Positions 9,050-64,000 of a stretch of DNA of 64,000 bases are shown piece after piece. Where the stretch lies: NCBI GenBank assembly GCA_963775685.1, contig CAVZJV010000014.1, forward strand, positions 832,001 to 896,000. Direction: 5' to 3'. Every line of letters starts with the position of its first letter. The stretch's first letter is position 1. Under the pieces are notes generated by a model that was given only the letters and a program-made list of their open reading frames with translations, was not told the DNA's origin and did no database searches. The position numbers were made by a program, and so were the translations under genes. The stretch comes from Candidatus Bathyarchaeota archaeon. GTDB taxonomy: Archaea > Thermoproteota > Bathyarchaeia > Bathyarchaeales > Bathycorpusculaceae.

Positions 9050-12000
9050 TTAATCTGCTACAGGCAGAGTTATGGTGAAAGCAGTGCCTTTACCCAGCTC
9101 ACTTGTAAACGCGATGGTGCCGTCCTGTGCCTCCATCAAACGTTTACAAACCGCCAACCCAAAACCCTGACCTTTAGATTTTGTGGTAAACAGAGGCTTG
9201 AAAATCTTCGCCCTAACCTCCTTAGGTATACCATTACCGTTATCCAAAACACTAAGCAGCATTTTTCCATCCATTGCCTTTGCCTTAATCGCGATTTTTC
9301 CGCCGTTTGGCATAGCTTGGACGCTGTTATTAAGCAGGTTAGTGAGCGTACGTTGCAGATAAGATAGGTCAGTTAATATTTTCGGAAGTTTTTTTGGGGT
9401 TTGCGTAGTCACGTGGATGTTTTCTGGAATTTGAACCATCGACAAAGCCTTTTTTATAACGTCTCTTAATTCGTAGACTTTGATTTCTGGGCATAGTTTT
9501 TTGGCGTAGTCTTGCAGGTCGGCGACGATTTTGTTTATGTAGTCGGTTTGTTGTTCAATCAAATTTATGCTTTCTAGTAAATTCTGTTTTGATTGGTTTT
9601 CCGGCAGAGTTTTAAGTTCTTCTTGAGCTAAGTAAACTGCTCCAATGATTGCTTGCAGTGGATTACGGATGTCATGCCCAATCATGCCCGCTGTTTCGCC
9701 GATTCCTGCTAAACGTTCAGCTTTTGTTAGCTCCTCTGTTTTTTCCTTAACAAGTTTTTCTAACTGTTCGGAGTGTTGCTGTAAGTCTTGCTCCATTTTT
9801 TTGATTTCCGTAATATCGGTCATGACGCTTACAGCTGAGGTTACCTGGTGATTGATAATTTCTGGGGCTATCGTATACTTGAATGCTTTAAAACCGATGG
9901 AGCTCTGCAGGTTGAATTCGCCTGTTTGCTGTTTTTTAGTTTTGAATGCATTCATCAAGGATTCATCTAATTGGTTTGCCAATGGCTTTAGCTCCTCTAT
10001 CTGCTTGATTGCTTTGCCAAGCATCAACTTAGGGTTAATACCCATAGCATTTTGGACGGAAGGGCTAACATAAATAAATTGTAAGGTTTTGTCGAATCTA
10101 CTGATTATTTCTGGAGCGTTCTCTGTTAAAGTGCGGTATTTCTCTGCTTCGATCAAGATTTTGTTTTGTGCCTTCGTTAAATCGTCAATATCTATGAATG
10201 AAATTACTGCGCCACCAATCTTTTTTTCTTCAGTAATGTATGGTCTAATCCGCAATTCATACCAACGGCCTTTCTGGTCTTGGAAGGTGGTGTTAATGAC
10301 GCTTAGCCTATTGATTACTTCTACTAAAGTTTTTTCTAAATTCTTAAAAGGAATGTCTAATCGAATGGTTGTAATTGAGCGACCAACATCTGAAGGAATA
10401 AGTCCCAAAATAGTTTGGGTTTCAGGCGTAAACCGCCTAATTTTGAATGTGTTGTCAACCATTATCATTGCGATGTCCATATTTTTGATTGTGTTGGATA
10501 AATCATCATTTGATTGTGCAAGGTCGGCGTTTCGGGTTTTTAGTTCATCGTTTAGTGTTTTTAGTTCTTCGTTGGTAGATTGGAGCTCTTCTTTTGCGGT
10601 TTCGAGTTCTTCGTTTGTGCTTTGCAGTTCTTCATTGCTGGATTGAACTTCTTCCATGGCGGCGCGTAATTCTTCGTTAGTTGCTTCTTGCTCCTCTATT
10701 ATTGTCTGGAGCGATTGTTTACTGGAGTCTAACTCGTCACGAATTTCTTTAAGTTGTAACTCTTTTTTTATTCTCTCGCTTTCACTTTGCTTTTCAGGTC
10801 GTCCCACCATGGGCTGCACAATGTTATGCTTGTTTTCTCTAAGTAAAACAAGGAAGAAGAGGTCTTCGAAGTTTTTGTTTTTTAAAGGCAGAACCTCAAT
10901 AGTTACTGTTTTTGTGTCTCCATTAGTTTTGAACTCTACCGTTTCAATGGTTATTTGTTTATCCTCTTTTTTTGCCCTATAAATGCCTGTTTCAATTTCA
11001 AGCTTTAACTCTTCCCGAAGCATTTTGCTAATGTTCAAGCTGGCAGCTCCTGCTTCAGGGAGAATATACGGCGCCATGTAACCTCGGAAAAGTAAGATGT
11101 CTAAATTCTTGTTAACTAGCATCATCGCTGGAACATATCTGGACATGACTATTTTGTCTACATCTTCTTTTAGTGTACTTATGGGGTCTTTTTTGGTTGT
11201 ATCTTTCAGAGGCATTTTGGTTGAGATTTGGAAAGCGTCAAAGCCAAAATTTACTTGGCTCTGTGCTCTCTTTTTAATGAAAACTGAGCTTCTCTTCTCT
11301 AATGGAACAAAGAGGTCGGTGAATTTGCCGATGCTTTCAGATTCACCCAAAACTAGAAAACCGCTTGGTTTTAACCCATAATGCAATATTGGAATTAGCT
11401 TTTCTTGGAGGAGGGAATCAAAGTATATGAGGACGTTGCGGCAGCAAACCATATCAATGTTTGAAAAAGGAGGGTCCTTAGTTAGATCCTGTTTTGCGAA
11501 GATGCACAGGTCACGTATAGACTTTTTTATTTGGTAATTTCCATTTGACTTGACGAAAAATCTCCGTAGACGTTCCTCCGAGACATGTGCTTCAATACTT
11601 TTAGGGTATAGTCCCTTTCGGGCTTTTTCAATATTTTTATCGTTAACATCTGTTCCGAAAACCTGAACAGTTACGTCTGCGATGGACTTTGATTCTAAAA
11701 ATTCTTGAAGTGTAATGGCAACTGAATAGACTTCTTCACCTGTTGAACAGCCAGGTATCCATATGCGGATTGGTGAATTAGTAGTTTTGATTTTTAGTAA
11801 TTCGGGATAAACTTTTTCCTTTAACAAGTTGAAGGTGACTGGTTCTCGGAAAAAGCTTGTAACGCCAATGAGCATGTCATCAAATAATGCTTGCAGTTCA
11901 ATCGAATGTGACTTTAGATATTCAACGTACTTGTTGATGCTGCCAATTTGGTTTATGACCATGCGGCGAGTTACTCGCCTGTTAATCGTCGCTGCCTTAT

Positions 12001-12772
12001 AATGCGTAAAATCAACGCCGAATGCAGATTTAAGAAGCGTAAAAACTGTTTGGTTTTCCATTTTCCCAATTTTAGATTCAACAGCTTTTACTTCGGCTGG
12101 TAAAATCTCCGGGCTTTTAGCTATACGGGCTAGTTCTTTTGCTATTTTTTCTGCTGACAAAATAAAGTGTACGCTTTCAGCAGTTATGGCGCTTTGTGGC
12201 ATACCTGGGTACTGGGCAGTTTCTGGGTCTTGAACAAAAGTAATTCCACCTTCCGCATTGATTGCTCTTAAGCCTTCTGTTCCATCTGTACCTGTTCCAG
12301 AAAGAATTATCCCAATTCCCTGACTCTTTCTCTCTTTAGCTAAAGAAATTAGAAAAACATCAATGGTTCTAGGATTTTGAAGGCGAGGAAGGAGCTGAAG
12401 AAGGCCTCCGTTAATCGTCATGTTTTTGTCGGGAGGAATCACATAAACATTGTTTGGTTCCACTTTCATTCCATTCTTTACTTGGTAAACGGGCATAGAA
12501 GTGGACCGAGAAAGAATTTCCGTTAGCATGCTAGATTGTCCAGGCAGTAAATGCTGTATAACCACAAACGCCATTCCAGTGTCATTGGGCATATTGTCCA
12601 GAAGCAACCTCAAGGGGTCTAAACCGCCAGCAGAAGCGCCGATGCCAACTACAGGAAAACTTGGGGAAACTGATTTAGCTTCATTTAATTTGTTGTTGCC
12701 TGAGATGTGTGGCTCTTCCAAAATAGCTGTTGCCTTATCTTTCATTTCATTTTTGTCTGTTGTAATGCCCAA
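9050..12772 (-). CDS. CheB methylesterase-CheR methyltransferase-coiled coil-PAS-histidine kinase fusion
   Basis: GIGASAGG/IQHL/LSGTGTDG (CheB); VTSFFR, GCSTGEE, CRNVLIY (CheR); NEELQS repeats; PAS; GHDIRNPL and GQGFGL kinase motifs. Confidence 0.92.
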   Translation of the reverse strand: MGITTDKNEMKDKATAILEEPHISGNNKLNEAKSVSPSFPVVGIGASAGGLDPLRLLLDNMPNDTGMAFVVIQHLLPGQSSMLTEILSRSTSMPVYQVKNGMKVEPNNVYVIPPDKNMTINGGLLQLLPRLQNPRTIDVFLISLAKERKSQGIGIILSGTGTDGTEGLRAINAEGGITFVQDPETAQYPGMPQSAITAESVHFILSAEKIAKELARIAKSPEILPAEVKAVESKIGKMENQTVFTLLKSAFGVDFTHYKAATINRRVTRRMVINQIGSINKYVEYLKSHSIELQALFDDMLIGVTSFFREPVTFNLLKEKVYPELLKIKTTNSPIRIWIPGCSTGEEVYSVAITLQEFLESKSIADVTVQVFGTDVNDKNIEKARKGLYPKSIEAHVSEERLRRFFVKSNGNYQIKKSIRDLCIFAKQDLTKDPPFSNIDMVCCRNVLIYFDSLLQEKLIPILHYGLKPSGFLVLGESESIGKFTDLFVPLEKRSSVFIKKRAQSQVNFGFDAFQISTKMPLKDTTKKDPISTLKEDVDKIVMSRYVPAMMLVNKNLDILLFRGYMAPYILPEAGAASLNISKMLREELKLEIETGIYRAKKEDKQITIETVEFKTNGDTKTVTIEVLPLKNKNFEDLFFLVLLRENKHNIVQPMVGRPEKQSESERIKKELQLKEIRDELDSSKQSLQTIIEEQEATNEELRAAMEEVQSSNEELQSTNEELETAKEELQSTNEELKTLNDELKTRNADLAQSNDDLSNTIKNMDIAMIMVDNTFKIRRFTPETQTILGLIPSDVGRSITTIRLDIPFKNLEKTLVEVINRLSVINTTFQDQKGRWYELRIRPYITEEKKIGGAVISFIDIDDLTKAQNKILIEAEKYRTLTENAPEIISRFDKTLQFIYVSPSVQNAMGINPKLMLGKAIKQIEELKPLANQLDESLMNAFKTKKQQTGEFNLQSSIGFKAFKYTIAPEIINHQVTSAVSVMTDITEIKKMEQDLQQHSEQLEKLVKEKTEELTKAERLAGIGETAGMIGHDIRNPLQAIIGAVYLAQEELKTLPENQSKQNLLESINLIEQQTDYINKIVADLQDYAKKLCPEIKVYELRDVIKKALSMVQIPENIHVTTQTPKKLPKILTDLSYLQRTLTNLLNNSVQAMPNGGKIAIKAKAMDGKMLLSVLDNGNGIPKEVRAKIFKPLFTTKSKGQGFGLAVCKRLMEAQDGTIAFTSELGKGTAFTITLPVAD

Positions 12773-58452: not shown

Positions 58453-58593
58453 TTCCTTTAGGTTACAGCAACCATACCTTGTTAGAACTGTTTCGTGGTG
58501 AGCAGCTTTAGTGGGAGGCGGCGCCTGTCGGTTTTTGAGGGGTTGGTTGCAATAATCAATATATTCAGAGGTAGCCATCCTGCAGTTATGAGT

Positions 58594-59045
58594 ATGTATC
58601 GGACCGGTGTTGCGAACCTGCCCTTGCATGGTGGCAAGGCCCCTTCTTGGCTTACGGTGCGCATGCGTAAATTAGCCAAAGAAATAGCTAAGATCATGAT
58701 TGAAGAGCAGGGCACAGCCAAATTTATCGCGCGTCTTAGTGATCCCTTTTGGTTTCAGGCTTTTGGTTGCGTGTTGGCTTATGACTGGCACAGCAGCGGA
58801 GTAACCACCGTGGTCACAGGCATCCTCAAAGGTGCACTGTCGCCCGAGGAACATGGCGTTGCTGTTTGCGGGGGTAAAGGCAAAACCAGCCGAAAAACGC
58901 CCAGCGACATCGCGGCAGTCGGCGAAAAATTTGGTTTCTCCCAAGAAACTGTCGATGACCTAACCTACACGAGCCGTATAACCGCCAAAGTCGACAACAC
59001 CGCCATCCAAGCCGGTTATCAACTCTGAACCTCATGCTTTTTTCG
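58594..59045 (+). pseudogene. 5' part of a DUF763 gene, truncated at the mobile-element junction
   Basis: GVANLPLHGGKAP.WL, LSDPFWFQAFGCVL.YDWHSSGVTT, AKVDNTAIQAGYQL, then residual CAT GCT TTT TTC (HAFF). Confidence 0.85.
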
Positions 59046-59057
59046 CTATTACCACGT

Positions 59058-60234
59058 CTATGTCAGCCTCGAATAGAGTTTAACTGTTCTGCCGTCTTTG
59101 TCTATTCCAGTGTCGTATAGTTCATAGCCTAATGTCCTAAGTTCCTCTTGTTCATCAATCGTGTAAGCCCTAGGAGTTTCATAGGTACAAGCCTGGTCAT
59201 CGAAAGTGCCAAAATATTTCTCTGTGCTGCTTAAGCGTTTGTGACCTAATCGGGCTTGAACCTTGCGAACGTTGAATCTGGTTTTCTTGTATGTTTGATC
59301 GGCGTAATAGCGTCTAAAGCTGTGGTGATGAATGTTTAACAGATTTGGCATACTGAGTTTTTTGGCTATGCGGTTTCTGGATCGTGCAAATGTTGATTGA
59401 AGAGTGCGTTTGTTTGGGTTAAAGACGTTAGGGCTGTATTTCTTTGGTAGCGCTAACAGCATTGCAATACATTGTTCGGTAACAGTGATATGTCGCGCCT
59501 TGCTGCCCTTCTCTGGATGGTTAATGTAGATTATCTTGGCTTGTGCGTCAATCTCTTTTTCCAGTAACCGCGCCATTTCCCCAACTCTAATGCCGGTGTC
59601 TGCCAATGCTTGACATAACGCTGCTTGTTCTCTGCCCAAGTTTTGTATTAAAGTTGTGACTTCATAGGGTTTAGGCGTGTATTGTTCCTTAGAATCATAT
59701 GTTATCTTTGGCTTATCAAATGGTATTTTGAACGCTTTAGTATAACTTAGGTAGGCTTGGACATAATGGAATTTTGAAGCATCAGTGAAACCTTCAGTTG
59801 CAAGAATCGTTAGGAAGCTATCGGGGTTGTCTAAGTTTGTGCCTCTTTTCATCGAATACTTCTAAACGGAAAACTCGGTGTGCTATAGTTGTGTCTGCTA
59901 TATTACGTAACTTCTCTTTCCATATGTATTGTATTAGTCGCGTGTCTAAGTTGGTTTTTTCACCAGCGATAGCTCGTTTAACTATCGCTTGAATGGTCAA
60001 GTTTTTCGCATCCTTGTTTGGTAGCGCATACTTGGCTATTGGTGTATTCTGTGCTTGAGTTTTTAAGGCTTGGGGGTCTGTGAATCTGTAACCACACTTT
60101 TTGCATGAAAAACGCTGTGCGTCTGATCCATCGCTTAAAGTGCGGTGCCCAGAGCATTGTGTCTTTTCAGAGCCACATTCAGGACAACAAGGCAAAATGA
60201 TACTTTTAAGGTCAGCTAAGGCTTGAAGTTTCAA
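59058..60234 (-). CDS. Tyrosine recombinase/integrase with N-terminal Zn ribbon (indel near 59850)
   Basis: CPECGS..QRFSCKKCGYRF; catalytic set TGIRVGE, PEKGS, HSFR, LGHK, TEKY. Confidence 0.85.
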
Positions 60235-60620: not shown

Positions 60621-61178
60621 TTAGCTAGGGTTGTCCTTAACAATTTTCCACGTATGCGCTTTCCGTTGAGAAACATTACAAACTCTTTTTCCAGCATCGA
60701 CAACTAAGCCTTTTTTAACAAAACTATTACGTACAGGGCGAATCACGTTTGGGTCTCTGTACCCCAGGGAAAATGCGAGCTCATAATCCGTAGAACATGG
60801 ATGCTGAACCAATGCGTCAAAAACTTCTTTGTTTGTGACAGTTGGGATTAATTTCTTAAATTTTCCAGTTGGAACCGTTATTTCATTATTATTTCCGACG
60901 CCACGCCAAAAATGTGCCGATTTACCTGAAATCGTACACTTGCGCTTTCCCATGTCGCTCAATAAGTCCATATCGTAAAGTTCTTTTCTTCTAGGTCTTA
61001 CAACGTCAGGATTTTGGAAACCCATGGCAAAAGTAATTTCTAAATCGGTAGAATCTGGCCAAGTGAGAAAAGCATCTAAAACCGCCTTTTGCCTTTCTCC
61101 AAGTTCGGGTGTAATTTCTAGATAAGCAATAATAGATGTTTCTCGCATTAATCGGGTAAGTCGCAGTTGTTTTTTCAA
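60621..61178 (-). CDS. Protein with two tandem winged-helix-like repeats
   Basis: STDLEI..GFQNPDVVRPRRKEL..GKRKCTISGKSAHFW versus STDYEL..GYRDPNVIRPVRNSF..GKRVCNVSQRKAHTW. Confidence 0.7.
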   Translation of the reverse strand: MKKQLRLTRLMRETSIIAYLEITPELGERQKAVLDAFLTWPDSTDLEITFAMGFQNPDVVRPRRKELYDMDLLSDMGKRKCTISGKSAHFWRGVGNNNEITVPTGKFKKLIPTVTNKEVFDALVQHPCSTDYELAFSLGYRDPNVIRPVRNSFVKKGLVVDAGKRVCNVSQRKAHTWKIVKDNPS

Positions 61179-61314: not shown

Positions 61315-63950
61315 CTAACTTTTAGTTAAAGCTTTCATCAATGTACTCGATATTTCTGTTTTTGTCTCTTCGTTTACGAAGATGTATTGAATTTTATTTT
61401 CAACTTCATCTTTAATGATGCCATCCCAACCTTCAACGGGGAACTCTGCAAGGCGTTTATCCATGCTATTAGTAACATCTAAGTTTTCGATGTCGCTTTC
61501 AGTTCCGCTCAAGTTGCTTCTCAGCTTAGATTTAAGTGTTTCAACAATTTTCTCTTTGCCACCTAGAACACCCATATTTCCTTTTCGATGTTATTCTCTA
61601 AAGATTCTTCTATCGCTTGTTTAGTTTCAGCCGTTACCACTTCGTCTGGTGGTCTAACCTTAGCTTTGCATCCATGCTCCTCTAGCTTCTCGTCAACCAA
61701 GCAAGAAACTTCTCAGGAGTGAATGCGTTCAGCTCAATCCTATTCATAAGTTTGTTGCCATCTTTATCATAACCGGCATCCGTTATCTCTTTTAGTTCCT
61801 CAGGCATGTACTTGCCGATTTTTTTAGATATTTTTGTGTAATGACCATCTTTATTTTTTTGCCAAGGAACTTTCTCAGGTTTCAGTTTCCATTCTTCAGC
61901 GTCCTTTATTGTCAAGCCTAAATCAACAATTTCAAGTTTATGTTCTGGGTCGTTTTGGCTTCCATGCTTAAACGTTAAGGAAATGCCCAAACCGTAGACA
62001 TCAGCATTGTGAACGGTGAATAATTGCATCTTTTGACCGCTTTCTTCAGCCATCTTCTTTAACTTCTTTAACATTTTACGGGCACCCATAGACCTTCGCC
62101 TCTTCCAGCAATCACAGCTACATCAAATTTATCGTGAAAGTGATTTTCAGTCAGAATCCCTTTAAAACCACGTTTTTCTATGAATAGAATTTTATTGTAT
62201 TTCCAAGCAGGCAATTCATAATCATCTACGTTCTCAGTATCAATCAACATAACGGATTTTTCACGGGGTTCTTGGAGCTCGCCACTGGCTTCTTTAAGCA
62301 TTTTTTTCAGAATTTCGTCACCATTAGAGTACTCTCTCCTGAATTGCTCAAGAAGAGTTGGCGTAAAATAGGGATCGAATTTAGACACCAGATCGCGCCA
62401 CCCTTTTTTAATAAAAATTTCTCTCAAGGTGTACCATAAGTTACGAGCATAATAGCTGAGTTTTCCTCCACTTGAAACAACGCCAACAGCTTCAGGCAAC
62501 ATATCAAAAACTTTTTCTTTCTGAGTAGCCGTACCAGCAGCTATACTTTTATCAACAGTTTCGTCCTCTCGGATTCGTTTGATCTACTTTTTTAGGCTCT
62601 TAGACAATCCTGATGCATCATAGACAACTATAGCATAGAAGAAGCAAACGGCCTAACATTAATCCTTGTTTTACCTAGGTCACAAAAGGGCACGTTTGGG
62701 CTTATCAAGTGAATCCATACCTCAACTGGATCGGAATCTGTTATGCCATTGTAATCTAATATGCCTGAGATATTTTGCAATATTTTTCCATTCACAATAC
62801 CTCGTAATCGTAGTTTAAACTTCTATCATCTGGTCTAAGGTCCTCGATTGATCGCAACATGGATTTTCTGTTTACTCGTATCGTTAAAAGCTTTCACGGC
62901 GACTTCTACTAAAAACGGGATTTTTTGGCTAGTCTCATTATCAATTGTAATGGCTTTCTTAAACTTGTATTTACTATTCCATTTAGTAGAAGGATTTCTC
63001 CCAAAAACCTGATCAATACGTCTGAGCTAACGGCCTTTGCTCAAGGCTAAGGGCAACAGAACAGTTGCAGTCGCTGCTTTGCCTATGCCTGAAAGGTATT
63101 CTAGAACTCTCAAGTAATACTGCCTTCTTTGTTCAGGACTGAAGTCCTTTAGATTTTTTGGAAAGTCTTTCAATTTTAGTTCGCTGCAATCTCTGAACTC
63201 TTGAGTAAAAACATCTGTCTCTTTGTCTCCTACAGCGATTATCTGTTTGATGAGTGTTTCCTCGTCAAAATCCAGAAATGACTCTCGGAAGTGTATTTTC
63301 AGGTCTGCTATCTTTTTGTATAGCAGCTAGTCGCGCTTTAGCTCTTTGTATGTAAAATTGACATGTGGATTAACGCGACGTATTCCAAAAATTTCTCAAG
63401 ATATGGTTCATCTGTCGCTCACTTTTCAAAGTAAGGTGGAAGAATAACGGATACTTTTGACGCTCATTCGTCACGTTCAACATCAGAAATTTTCGGGATG
63501 ATTTTTGCTTCTTTGCTATCATATAGAACGTCTAAGTTATATTTTTTACCGTTGCTAATAATCGTAATAGGGCATTCGTCGTATGTTTCATGAAGTTCTC
63601 TAGCGAGTGCGGTGCATCTACCAGGGATTATTTTATAGGCGTGTCCAACTAAACTGATGGTTATGTATTTGTAGAGTGCTCTGCTTGAGTAGAAATGTTT
63701 CAGGTCACATATTTTACGTACATTCTTTTCTACTCAGCCTAAACTATTATCTTTAACAGTGATTTTTATGAAGCTTCTGAATGTTTTTTCAATACATAGC
63801 TCAATGTTTACGTCTTTAATTTTTTCTTTAATTTCTAGCTGGCAGTATCTCTCGTCACACATGTCGATTGAATTTCCTAAGAGCTCACTAGATATGACAG
63901 CGTTGAAGTTTTCTATCGGTTCACCTATCAACGTTGTAATCCAAGCAATG
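61315..63950 (-). pseudogene. Decayed fused type IIB topoisomerase (Topo VIII-like: GHKL-transducer-WHD-Toprim); 5' end not in window
   Basis: ELLGNSID, TVKDNSLG, NPHVNFT, PFLVEV, IHLISPNVPFCDLGKTRI, RNLWY, LFIEKRG, HNADVYG, DLGL and RIELNA in order; multiple stops and indels. Confidence 0.75.

Positions 63951-64000
<50 letters not shown>

Follow-up and report, generated by a model that had tools for sequence, protein, structure and literature searches.

A probable Topo VIII relic on a tyrosine-integrase element inserted in the DUF763 gene of a Candidatus Bathyarchaeota archaeon

Topo VIII, reportedly described by Gadelle et al. in 2014, is a little-studied topoisomerase family confined to mobile elements. 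The Wadjet protein JetD contains a Toprim domain and a CAP-like domain distantly related to Top6A, but no GHKL or transducer part. According to the motif descriptions of the 2019 survey (Takahashi et al. 2019, PMC7671362), Topo VIII is marked by a fused chain in most members; by N, G1 and G2 boxes, with G2 reading GxxGxG or GxxGxA; by a switch lysine; by the motif R/HxxΦY with Arg at +3; by a Glu plus DxDxxG; by the T2BI box RVELNAM; by a family-specific C-terminal region; and by carriage on mobile elements. In the same descriptions the T2BI box is R/KxExxA/S in Topo VI and xWELDAL in Mini-A. Plasmid 5 of Halalkalicoccus jeotgali and pPPM1a of Paenibacillus polymyxa are named there as carriers of Topo VIII, and the archaeal members that the survey gives number only four, all euryarchaeal. 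A 2021 review states in its coverage of the family that no archaeal Topo VIII has been characterized (PMC8185306). Here, we analyzed a stretch of 64,000 nt (the window) from a Candidatus Bathyarchaeota archaeon (assembly GCA_963775685.1, contig CAVZJV010000014.1, here C14, positions 832,001 to 896,000). In it, a sequence-only reading had proposed a Topo VIII-like type IIB topoisomerase with fused B and A parts. The locus probably holds a decayed single-chain Topo VIII relic, carried as cargo by a 14.5-kb tyrosine-integrase element that inserted site-specifically into an archaeal DUF763 gene.

The relic and its assignment to Topo VIII

Three-frame translation of the minus strand gave one colinear protein across three frames between window positions 61315 and 63940, with the domain order GHKL, H2TH/transducer, 5Y-CAP, Toprim and C-terminal tail. 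All motifs named in the sequence-only reading (ELLGN, DNSLG, RNLWY, IEK, HNAD, DLGL and RIELNA) were present in this translation. A word-based search with a 135-aa Toprim fragment identified two intact metagenomic relatives, P0001 (938 aa, 61% identical) and P0002 (870 aa, 39% identical); precomputed Pfam annotation places HATPase_c and the TOP6A Toprim of P0002 in one open reading frame (ORF). A tblastn search with P0001 against the locus returned six colinear segments representing P0001 residues 48–934, with E values of 2e-136 for the best three segments and 5e-72 for the remaining three. The aligned segments run from window position 63940 to 61324, and a TAG stop codon occupies 61317–61315.

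All segments lie on the minus strand. Segment 1 (63341–63940, frame 0) covers the GHKL ATPase and corresponds to P0001 residues 48–214 with 49% identity. Segment 2 (62637–63371, frame 2) comprises the H2TH and transducer regions, matches residues 238–497 with 36% identity and holds the motif DLGK. Segment 3 (62092–62625, frame 1; residues 501–696, 61%) contains the linker, the 5Y-CAP domain with the catalytic Tyr in RNLWYTLR, and the first part of the Toprim domain with IEKRGF, while segment 4 (61697–62089, frame 0; residues 680–810, 60%) contains the rest of the Toprim domain and the T2BI box RIELNAF. Segments 5 and 6 (61315–61691, frames 2 and 1) represent the Topo VIII-type C-terminal helical region with the stop codon and match residues 812–852 (68%) and 853–934 (48%). 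Identity to P0001 is thus 60–61% over 5Y-CAP/Toprim and 48–68% over the tail. In a Pfam search of the relic fragments, read through stops with X, Topo-VIb_trans was matched in segment 2 at 2.5e-5 (24.5 bits, cut-off 24); TOP6A-Spo11_Toprim (0.011) and HATPase_c (0.23) stayed below cut-off. The sequence-only reading had counted four fragments. The gene is indeed in pieces, but the damage is larger, amounting to five frameshifts and nine in-frame stops. Assignment of the B-like and A-like halves to separate genes is contradicted by the intact relatives, in which both form one ORF: P0001 and P0002 are single polypeptides with both moieties, and the relic is colinear with P0001.

The boxes of P0001 read ELLDNSLD, DNGYG, GLIGHA, DxGK, RNLWYKLR, IEKRGF, HDADIYG and RIELNAF, followed by a helical tail of ~125 aa. 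In an alignment of 50 family members, N70, D73, D107, G111, G139 and G142 of the ATP-binding boxes were invariant in 50/50, as were Y565 and R568; E651, D708, D710 and G713 were invariant too. The ATP-binding boxes are complete in the intact clade members but not in the window copy, which retains the N box as ELLGNSID, reads DNSLG at G1 and has SLVGHA at G2, with the invariant G139 replaced by Ser. Judged from sequence, this loss is read as pseudogene erosion, which would bear on activity and not on descent. The Toprim domain shows a similar picture: relatives carry IEKRGF and HDADIYG, whereas the relic carries IEKRGF but HNADVYG in place of HDADxxG, so that the Glu is retained and the invariant D708 is replaced by Asn. 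The invariant Lys of DxGK (K485 in P0001) aligns with the Lys of ..SAGKES.. at position 427 of Sulfolobus shibatae Topo VI-B (2zbk_B numbering), which we take to be the switch lysine, and the motif persists in the relic as DLGK. The catalytic motif RNLWYTLR of the relic has Arg at +3. The T2BI box is RIELNAF in the relic and P0001 and RVELNAF in P0002. The tail of ~125 residues after this box is conserved between relic and P0001 (KVRPPDEVV, EGWD) and is helical in the P0001 model (H803-934); in the same model only ~45 residues separate the long linker helix (494–520) from Tyr565.

Comparisons beyond the closest relatives gave the same assignment. In tblastn searches against plasmids, P0001 matched 8 plasmid records. 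H. jeotgali B3 plasmid 5 (1e-25, with 22.6% identity and 94% of the query covered) and pPPM1a of P. polymyxa M1 (8e-31) were the best of these. Phylogenies were quick maximum-likelihood trees built without the Mini-A proteins and the 82 Topo VIII sequences of the published survey. In the tree of 75 rows, based on the A part, the relic grouped with P0001 and P0005 (SH-aLRT 100). This group is nested in a clade of 7 rows (99) and in one of 33 rows (96); the latter holds both reference Topo VIII, and a branch of 3.08 sets Top6A apart. The inner groupings recurred in a 40-row tree, in which two Mini-A-like rows had branches too long to place. In both trees the relic nests among Topo VIII references and apart from Top6A. 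A profile of 50 members matched residues 38–468 of S. shibatae Topo VI-B (1mx0) at 1e-36 and Top6A (1d3y) at 2.4e-10, and the AlphaFold model of P0001 (mean pLDDT 85) matched Topo VI-B structures with an E value of 2e-21.

The relic and its relatives resemble Topo VIII in forming one GHKL-H2TH-transducer-5Y-CAP-Toprim chain with an extra C-terminal region, and the relic also in being carried on a mobile element. The G2 box of the relatives is of the GxxGxA type (GLIGHA), their Toprim domain has the Glu and DxDxxG, the catalytic Tyr has Arg at −4 and +3, and the T2BI box is R[IV]ELNAF against RVELNAM. There are also differences. P0001 is only 23–27% identical to the two references. The catalytic Tyr is preceded by Trp (RxLWY), which is not among the forms (Y/F, M) given in the motif descriptions of PMC7671362, and the Arg at +3 is followed by Glu, Asp or Lys, not Pro. 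Finally, the window copy is a pseudogene, and its host is an archaeon of another lineage than the four archaeal cases of that survey.

Topo VI, the chromosomal type IIB enzyme of archaea, has the same domains, fold and catalytic residues, but is encoded by two separate genes, and the host genome has its own intact pair elsewhere (top6B, 529 aa, and top6A, 371 aa; C14:2223977-2225633). P0001 reached only about a tenth of the NCBIfam cut-offs for Topo VI (35 vs 274 bits for Top6B, 34 vs 465 bits for Top6A), a single-sequence search of Topo VI in the PDB gave only E 0.15, the T2BI box and C-terminal region differ, and a long branch separates the two in the trees. Mini-A shares the 5Y-CAP and Toprim domains and carriage on mobile elements; as described in PMC7671362 it is a stand-alone A-like viral protein of ~300 aa with no B part and xWELDAL, whereas the relic has a full B part and RIELNAF. 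PADLOC returned 0 families at E ≤ 0.01 for P0001 and both A-like fragments. Neither a grouping with split chromosomal Topo VI nor a link to JetD was therefore seen, since the trees separate Top6A and there was no PADLOC/JetD match. The proposal of a fused type IIB enzyme of the Topo VIII kind is thus borne out by architecture, motifs, plasmid matches and trees. On these sequence grounds, we assign the relic to Topo VIII and not to Topo VI, Mini-A or JetD; it adds a member to an enzyme family already known and does not represent a new type of system.

The integrative element and its DUF763 site

The relic lies within an insertion of 14,518 nt that splits a chromosomal DUF763 gene. The 5' half of this gene occupies window positions 58495–59028 on the plus strand (Pfam DUF763, 1.4e-60, profile positions 1–139 of 319), and the 3' half is found 14.5 kb downstream, outside the window, at C14:905501-906262 (profile positions 136–319, 2.3e-67). 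The left, attL-like junction core of 20 nt (AACTCT...GCTTT; plus strand, 59021–59040, equal to C14:891021-891040) forms an imperfect direct repeat with the right junction core of 19 nt (C14:905559-905577), and the sole exact 9-mer common to both junctions sits inside the core. No internal copy of the core, as tandem elements might leave, was detected within 6 edits of either core. The DUF763 gene was not restored by the element.

The 3' half of DUF763 was matched in 28 of 40 other genomes of the same genus. Most of them have one open frame of ~375–430 aa, matching from residue 18, and therefore an empty site. The gene is split at the same codon in 3/41 same-genus genomes, namely the host (G000), G392 and G421. 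The three elements share the integrase only; the insertions in G392 (contig C6, locus L077) and G421 (contig C3, locus L078) measure 4.3–4.6 kb and contain neither a Topo VIII nor a winged helix-turn-helix (wHTH) gene. DUF763 is thus a recurrent integration target. The split gene, the imperfect 19–20-nt repeat and the empty sites in the same genus support the suggestion that the relic is on an integrated element with a tyrosine integrase. The further idea that integrase, tandem wHTH and Topo VIII together define an element family was not supported, as the same-site integrase occurs in 2 of the 40 other same-genus genomes without Topo VIII or wHTH gene.

The genes of the insertion are, in order, the integrase, a 69-aa ORF, the wHTH gene, the Topo VIII relic, the poly-A run, an ORF-free stretch, a 354-aa recombinase-like gene and eight small ORFs. 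The catalytic part of the tyrosine integrase is a 264-aa ORF on the minus strand (59058–59852; Pfam Phage_integrase 3.7e-16; NCBIfam XerA-type 2.9e-20, below cut-off). Its N-terminal zinc-ribbon part is a 138-aa ORF (59818–60234, minus strand), with only weak zinc-ribbon Pfam matches, which shares 35 nt with the 264-aa ORF but is read in a different frame; the integrase is thus split by a frameshift. The integrases of G392 (391 aa) and G421 (432 aa) are single ORFs with an N-terminal zinc ribbon, and their C-terminal 263 aa are 69–71% identical to the 264-aa ORF. The tandem winged-helix protein (60621–61178, minus strand, 185 aa) is intact; it matched phrog_1123, a family of unknown function, in two stretches at 1.4e-31 and gave weak TFIIE_alpha/wHTH Pfam matches. 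With the integrase frameshifted too, the whole element looks like an immobilized fossil.

To the right of the poly-A run, C14:899041-905500 (L002, 6042-12465) encodes a divergent recombinase-like protein of 354 aa with a weak SAM-like N-domain match, together with the eight small ORFs, which include an Arc/CopG-like repressor and a wHTH protein. Two readings fit this region, a second element nested in the first or the right half of a composite. The remainder of the window is ordinary archaeal chromosome with long open frames, including aminoacyl-tRNA synthetases, the CCA-adding enzyme, HMG-CoA reductase and an ATP-dependent DNA ligase; the other ORFs checked were long and intact (e.g., 1240 aa and 617 aa). 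The closest Atlas clusters of two housekeeping proteins, Top6A and the ligase, mostly carry the label Nitrososphaerota, a coarse and weak hint to the position of the host. Among the intact ORFs, window positions 9050–12772 on the minus strand encode in a single ORF of 1240 aa a fusion of CheB methylesterase, CheR methyltransferase, PAS domains and a histidine kinase.

How the intact ancestor of the relic would have worked can be inferred from its homology with Topo VI and Topo VIII. The enzyme would have been a homodimer in which ATP binding shuts the N-terminal GHKL gate, and the transducer, with its switch lysine, would have passed this closure to the 5Y-CAP/Toprim half. There, the Tyr of RNLWY and Mg2+ held by the Toprim Glu and DxD would have cut both strands, and a second duplex would have passed through. 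Its role may have been to relax or unlink the DNA of the episomal form of the element during replication.

Lesions, the poly-A run and competing explanations

The frames along the relic follow the order 0, 2, 1, 0, 2, 1, so that there are five shifts, each corresponding to a single deleted base. Their positions are close to 63370, 62635, 62091, 61692 and 61567, none within a long homopolymer. Nine in-frame stops were found: three in segment 1 (TGA at 63736, 63466 and 63421), five in segment 2 (TAG at 63329, 63029, 62837 and 62825; TGA at 62828) and one in segment 3 (TAG at 62586). When the relic was aligned with seven relatives, all three segment 1 TGA codons fell opposite Trp in P0001 and P0005; those at 63466 and 63421 are also at Trp in P0006, and 63421 is at Trp in 7/7 aligned relatives. 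Stops 62837 and 62586 fall at Lys positions and 63029 at a Leu position. Changes from Trp to TGA (three), Lys to TAG (two) and Leu to TAG (one) can thus be named, and the stops therefore come from several kinds of substitution. G-to-A hypermutation of the coding strand, suggested by TGG to TGA, Gly to Ser and Asp to Asn, was considered but is not supported, as the other stops need A to T or T to A; it is also disfavored by the limitation of C depletion to ~500 nt past the poly-A run.

In the 50-member family alignment, the relic retains 22/24 invariant and 32/43 near-invariant columns. It thus misses 13/67 conserved positions. Intact members, each left out once, missed a median of 2 and at most 11. 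The gene lacks its first ~47 codons, and a poly-A run stands in their place and in that of the promoter (plus strand, 63951–64000 in the window); tblastn did not find the N-terminal codons beyond it. With five deletions, nine stops and two catalytic invariants lost, the copy is, as assembled, apparently dead and non-functional, as the sequence-only reading had supposed.

The same reading had allowed that end-of-contig error might contribute to the damage. This was mistaken: the window end is not the contig end, and the poly-A run of 564 nt (C14:895951-896514) is internal to a contig of 2,467,400 nt. It is the sole homopolymer of at least 25 nt in the 3.06-Mb assembly, and the simplest reading of it is an assembly artefact. 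The ~500 nt that follow (C14:896515-897000) are very C-poor, with 5–12 C per 200 nt and G at 16–37, and the 2.5 kb at C14:896515-899040 are AT-rich (23–33% GC) with no ORF above 68 aa. This ORF-poor stretch may be further decayed element DNA. Neither Rfam matches nor tandem repeats were found in the stretch after the poly-A run or the locus, nor was there a second copy in the genome.

In our judgment, the gene body is probably truly decayed, with biological lesions. That the lesions are biological and not assembly errors is, however, a conclusion drawn from one assembly, and several observations weigh against it. All five shifts go in the same direction, and the in-frame stops are confined to the ~1.2 kb closest to the poly-A run (62586–63736), a pattern that could also come from a local drop in consensus quality. 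The poly-A run is easiest to explain as an artefact, and the neighborhood of the relic may be poorly assembled. As 22 of the 24 invariant residues remain, any decay is not ancient. The reading as a whole is limited further by its closest intact relatives, all of them metagenomic singletons or members of small clusters, and by a mechanism and replication role that are proposed from homology. The uniform shifts, the placement of the stops, the poly-A run and the retained residues would fit an organism in which the gene is intact, the frameshifts, stops and missing 5' end being local assembly errors beside the poly-A artefact that adjoins it. We consider this unlikely. Nine nonsense codons of at least three substitution types are unusual for consensus errors, and the deletions are outside long homopolymers; the wHTH gene, at a distance of only 140 nt, has an open frame, as do all other long ORFs scanned in the window. 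In addition, two catalytic invariants have been substituted, and the integrase 1.5 kb away is broken too.

Assembly could also have intervened at a larger scale, by joining across the poly-A run two elements that share the DUF763 site but come from different cells of the population. One would have contributed integrase, wHTH and Topo VIII on the left, the other the 354-aa recombinase-like gene and the eight ORFs on the right; the 5' truncation and the 14.5-kb size would be artefacts, while the internal lesions may still be real. Such a chimera would account for two recombinase-type genes in the same orientation and for the position of the poly-A, C-poor and ORF-free stretches exactly between the two parts, and it is in keeping with the size of the G392 and G421 elements, only 4.3–4.6 kb with nothing in common with the right part. 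On the other hand, the two halves of DUF763 lie on either side of the insertion in the expected order and orientation, there is no internal copy of the junction core, and a nested or tandem insertion explains the two recombinases equally well. We regard the chimera as improbable. A functional gene that is read by recoding, with TGA as Trp, readthrough of other stops and programmed frameshifts, is hardly credible. The three TGA codons of the GHKL part, which has no TGG, do all fall at Trp of P0001 and P0005, but TGG to TGA is the commonest single-step nonsense change, and outside that part the gene encodes Trp by TGG (RNLWY, GW, AW and others). Moreover, TAG and TGA stops at non-Trp positions and five frameshifts would remain, and the gene start is missing; recoding was rejected on the other stops, the frameshifts and the use of TGG elsewhere. 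A truly decayed Topo VIII gene on an integrated element, which may be one element or a nested pair, is the reading that we retain.

Relatives in genomes and metagenomes, and significance

A profile of P0001 and P0002 was searched against 1.84 billion cluster representatives (clusters at 50% identity) and matched 2786 at E ≤ 0.001, 1608 at E ≤ 1e-10 and 501 at E ≤ 1e-30. Lengths were mostly 800–960 aa among the best 150 matches, and the T2BI pattern [RK]xE[LIVM][NDS][AS] was present in 31 of the 40 best library matches, most of the other nine being truncated proteins. As 501 clusters at E ≤ 1e-30 compare with 82 sequences in the 2019 survey, the family is much larger than published. Close relatives are rare; P0001, P0002, P0004 and P0005 are each single-member clusters. 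None were found in the viral contigs scanned or in the phage collection. Scans of genome contigs (21 loci) and metagenome contigs (26 loci) gave distant Topo VI-B genes or short fragments, which were rejected as close relatives; the two longest matches (L015 and L048) are ordinary adjacent Top6B and Top6A pairs of 536+359 and 542+359 aa.

The sequence-only reading had suggested a search of archaeal genomes for intact homologs. Near the host none appeared, P0001 having no match in the 39 other same-genus and 103 same-family genomes sampled; further out, matches at E ≤ 1e-5 occurred in 6/400 other genomes of the host's class. Three of these (G049, G105, G158) are ordinary Topo VI subunits. Genome G065 has a fused 834-aa gene, G135 has adjacent genes of 339 and 568 aa, and G201 has a C-terminal remnant. 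The G065 gene encodes a GHKL-Toprim protein (DNGPG, GALGNA, DHDPWG) and lies on a 9-kb contig (C18; L067, 40-5995) with a tyrosine integrase and a 287-aa multi-wHTH protein. The host's integrase and wHTH protein had no match on this contig at E ≤ 1e-4, so that only the layout is similar. The G201 remnant (C177; L068, 1897-2316, minus strand) is a 139-aa ORF with the C-terminal end of Topo VIII only, from RVELNAL, and is 31–34% identical to P0001 residues 775–937; it adjoins an AdoMet synthetase ORF without profile positions 1–79 and may be another decayed insertion.

The 50-member profile matched 38/40 same-genus genomes. These matches were Topo VI genes, except for a B-like gene in G421 and a Mini-A-like gene in G398. 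In G421 (C5:660000-679900; L087, 7828-10682, minus strand), two genes overlapping by 4 nt lie between an integrase and a large terminase. The first (465 aa) has GHKL and transducer parts and gave an E value of 2e-50 with the Topo VIII profile; the second (486 aa) combines a Toprim domain (DFDIVG; hhalign 67%, 5e-5) with a Mini-A-like CEADAL box. The 465-aa gene may be the B partner of a Mini-A; such a partner was sought and not found in the Mini-A analysis of Takahashi et al. (PMC7671362). The G398 gene (C104; L088, 2190-3749, minus strand), on a 6.6-kb contig of this same-genus genome, encodes a stand-alone 519-aa Mini-A-like protein (RHFFYECR, DFDLEG, RIEIDAI).

We tentatively propose that the relic together with P0001 and P0005, and then P0002, P0004 and P0007, could make up a Topo VIII lineage of its own, recognizable by RxLWY and a G2 box of GxxGH[A/F] or GxxGNA. 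It would reside on integrative elements of non-euryarchaeal (Thermoproteati/TACK-type) archaea, and these hosts would switch the enzyme off by mutation after the element has become stuck in the chromosome. We rate this as possible rather than probable. If true, this would be the first archaeal Topo VIII outside Euryarchaeota; among open-access papers, we found none joining Topo VIII with Bathyarchaeia, Thermoproteota or TACK.

The interest of the locus is modest and lies in a host outside the euryarchaeal cases, the RxLWY variant, the DUF763 site common to related elements and the size of the metagenomic family. For a little-studied family, it extends the archaeal hosts to another lineage and provides a clean integration site, with empty sites in relatives as controls. 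P0001 and other intact relatives are candidates for biochemistry, and a family far above its published size would justify a new survey. The copy itself is dead and of no use to the cell; it is valuable as a trace of earlier element traffic.

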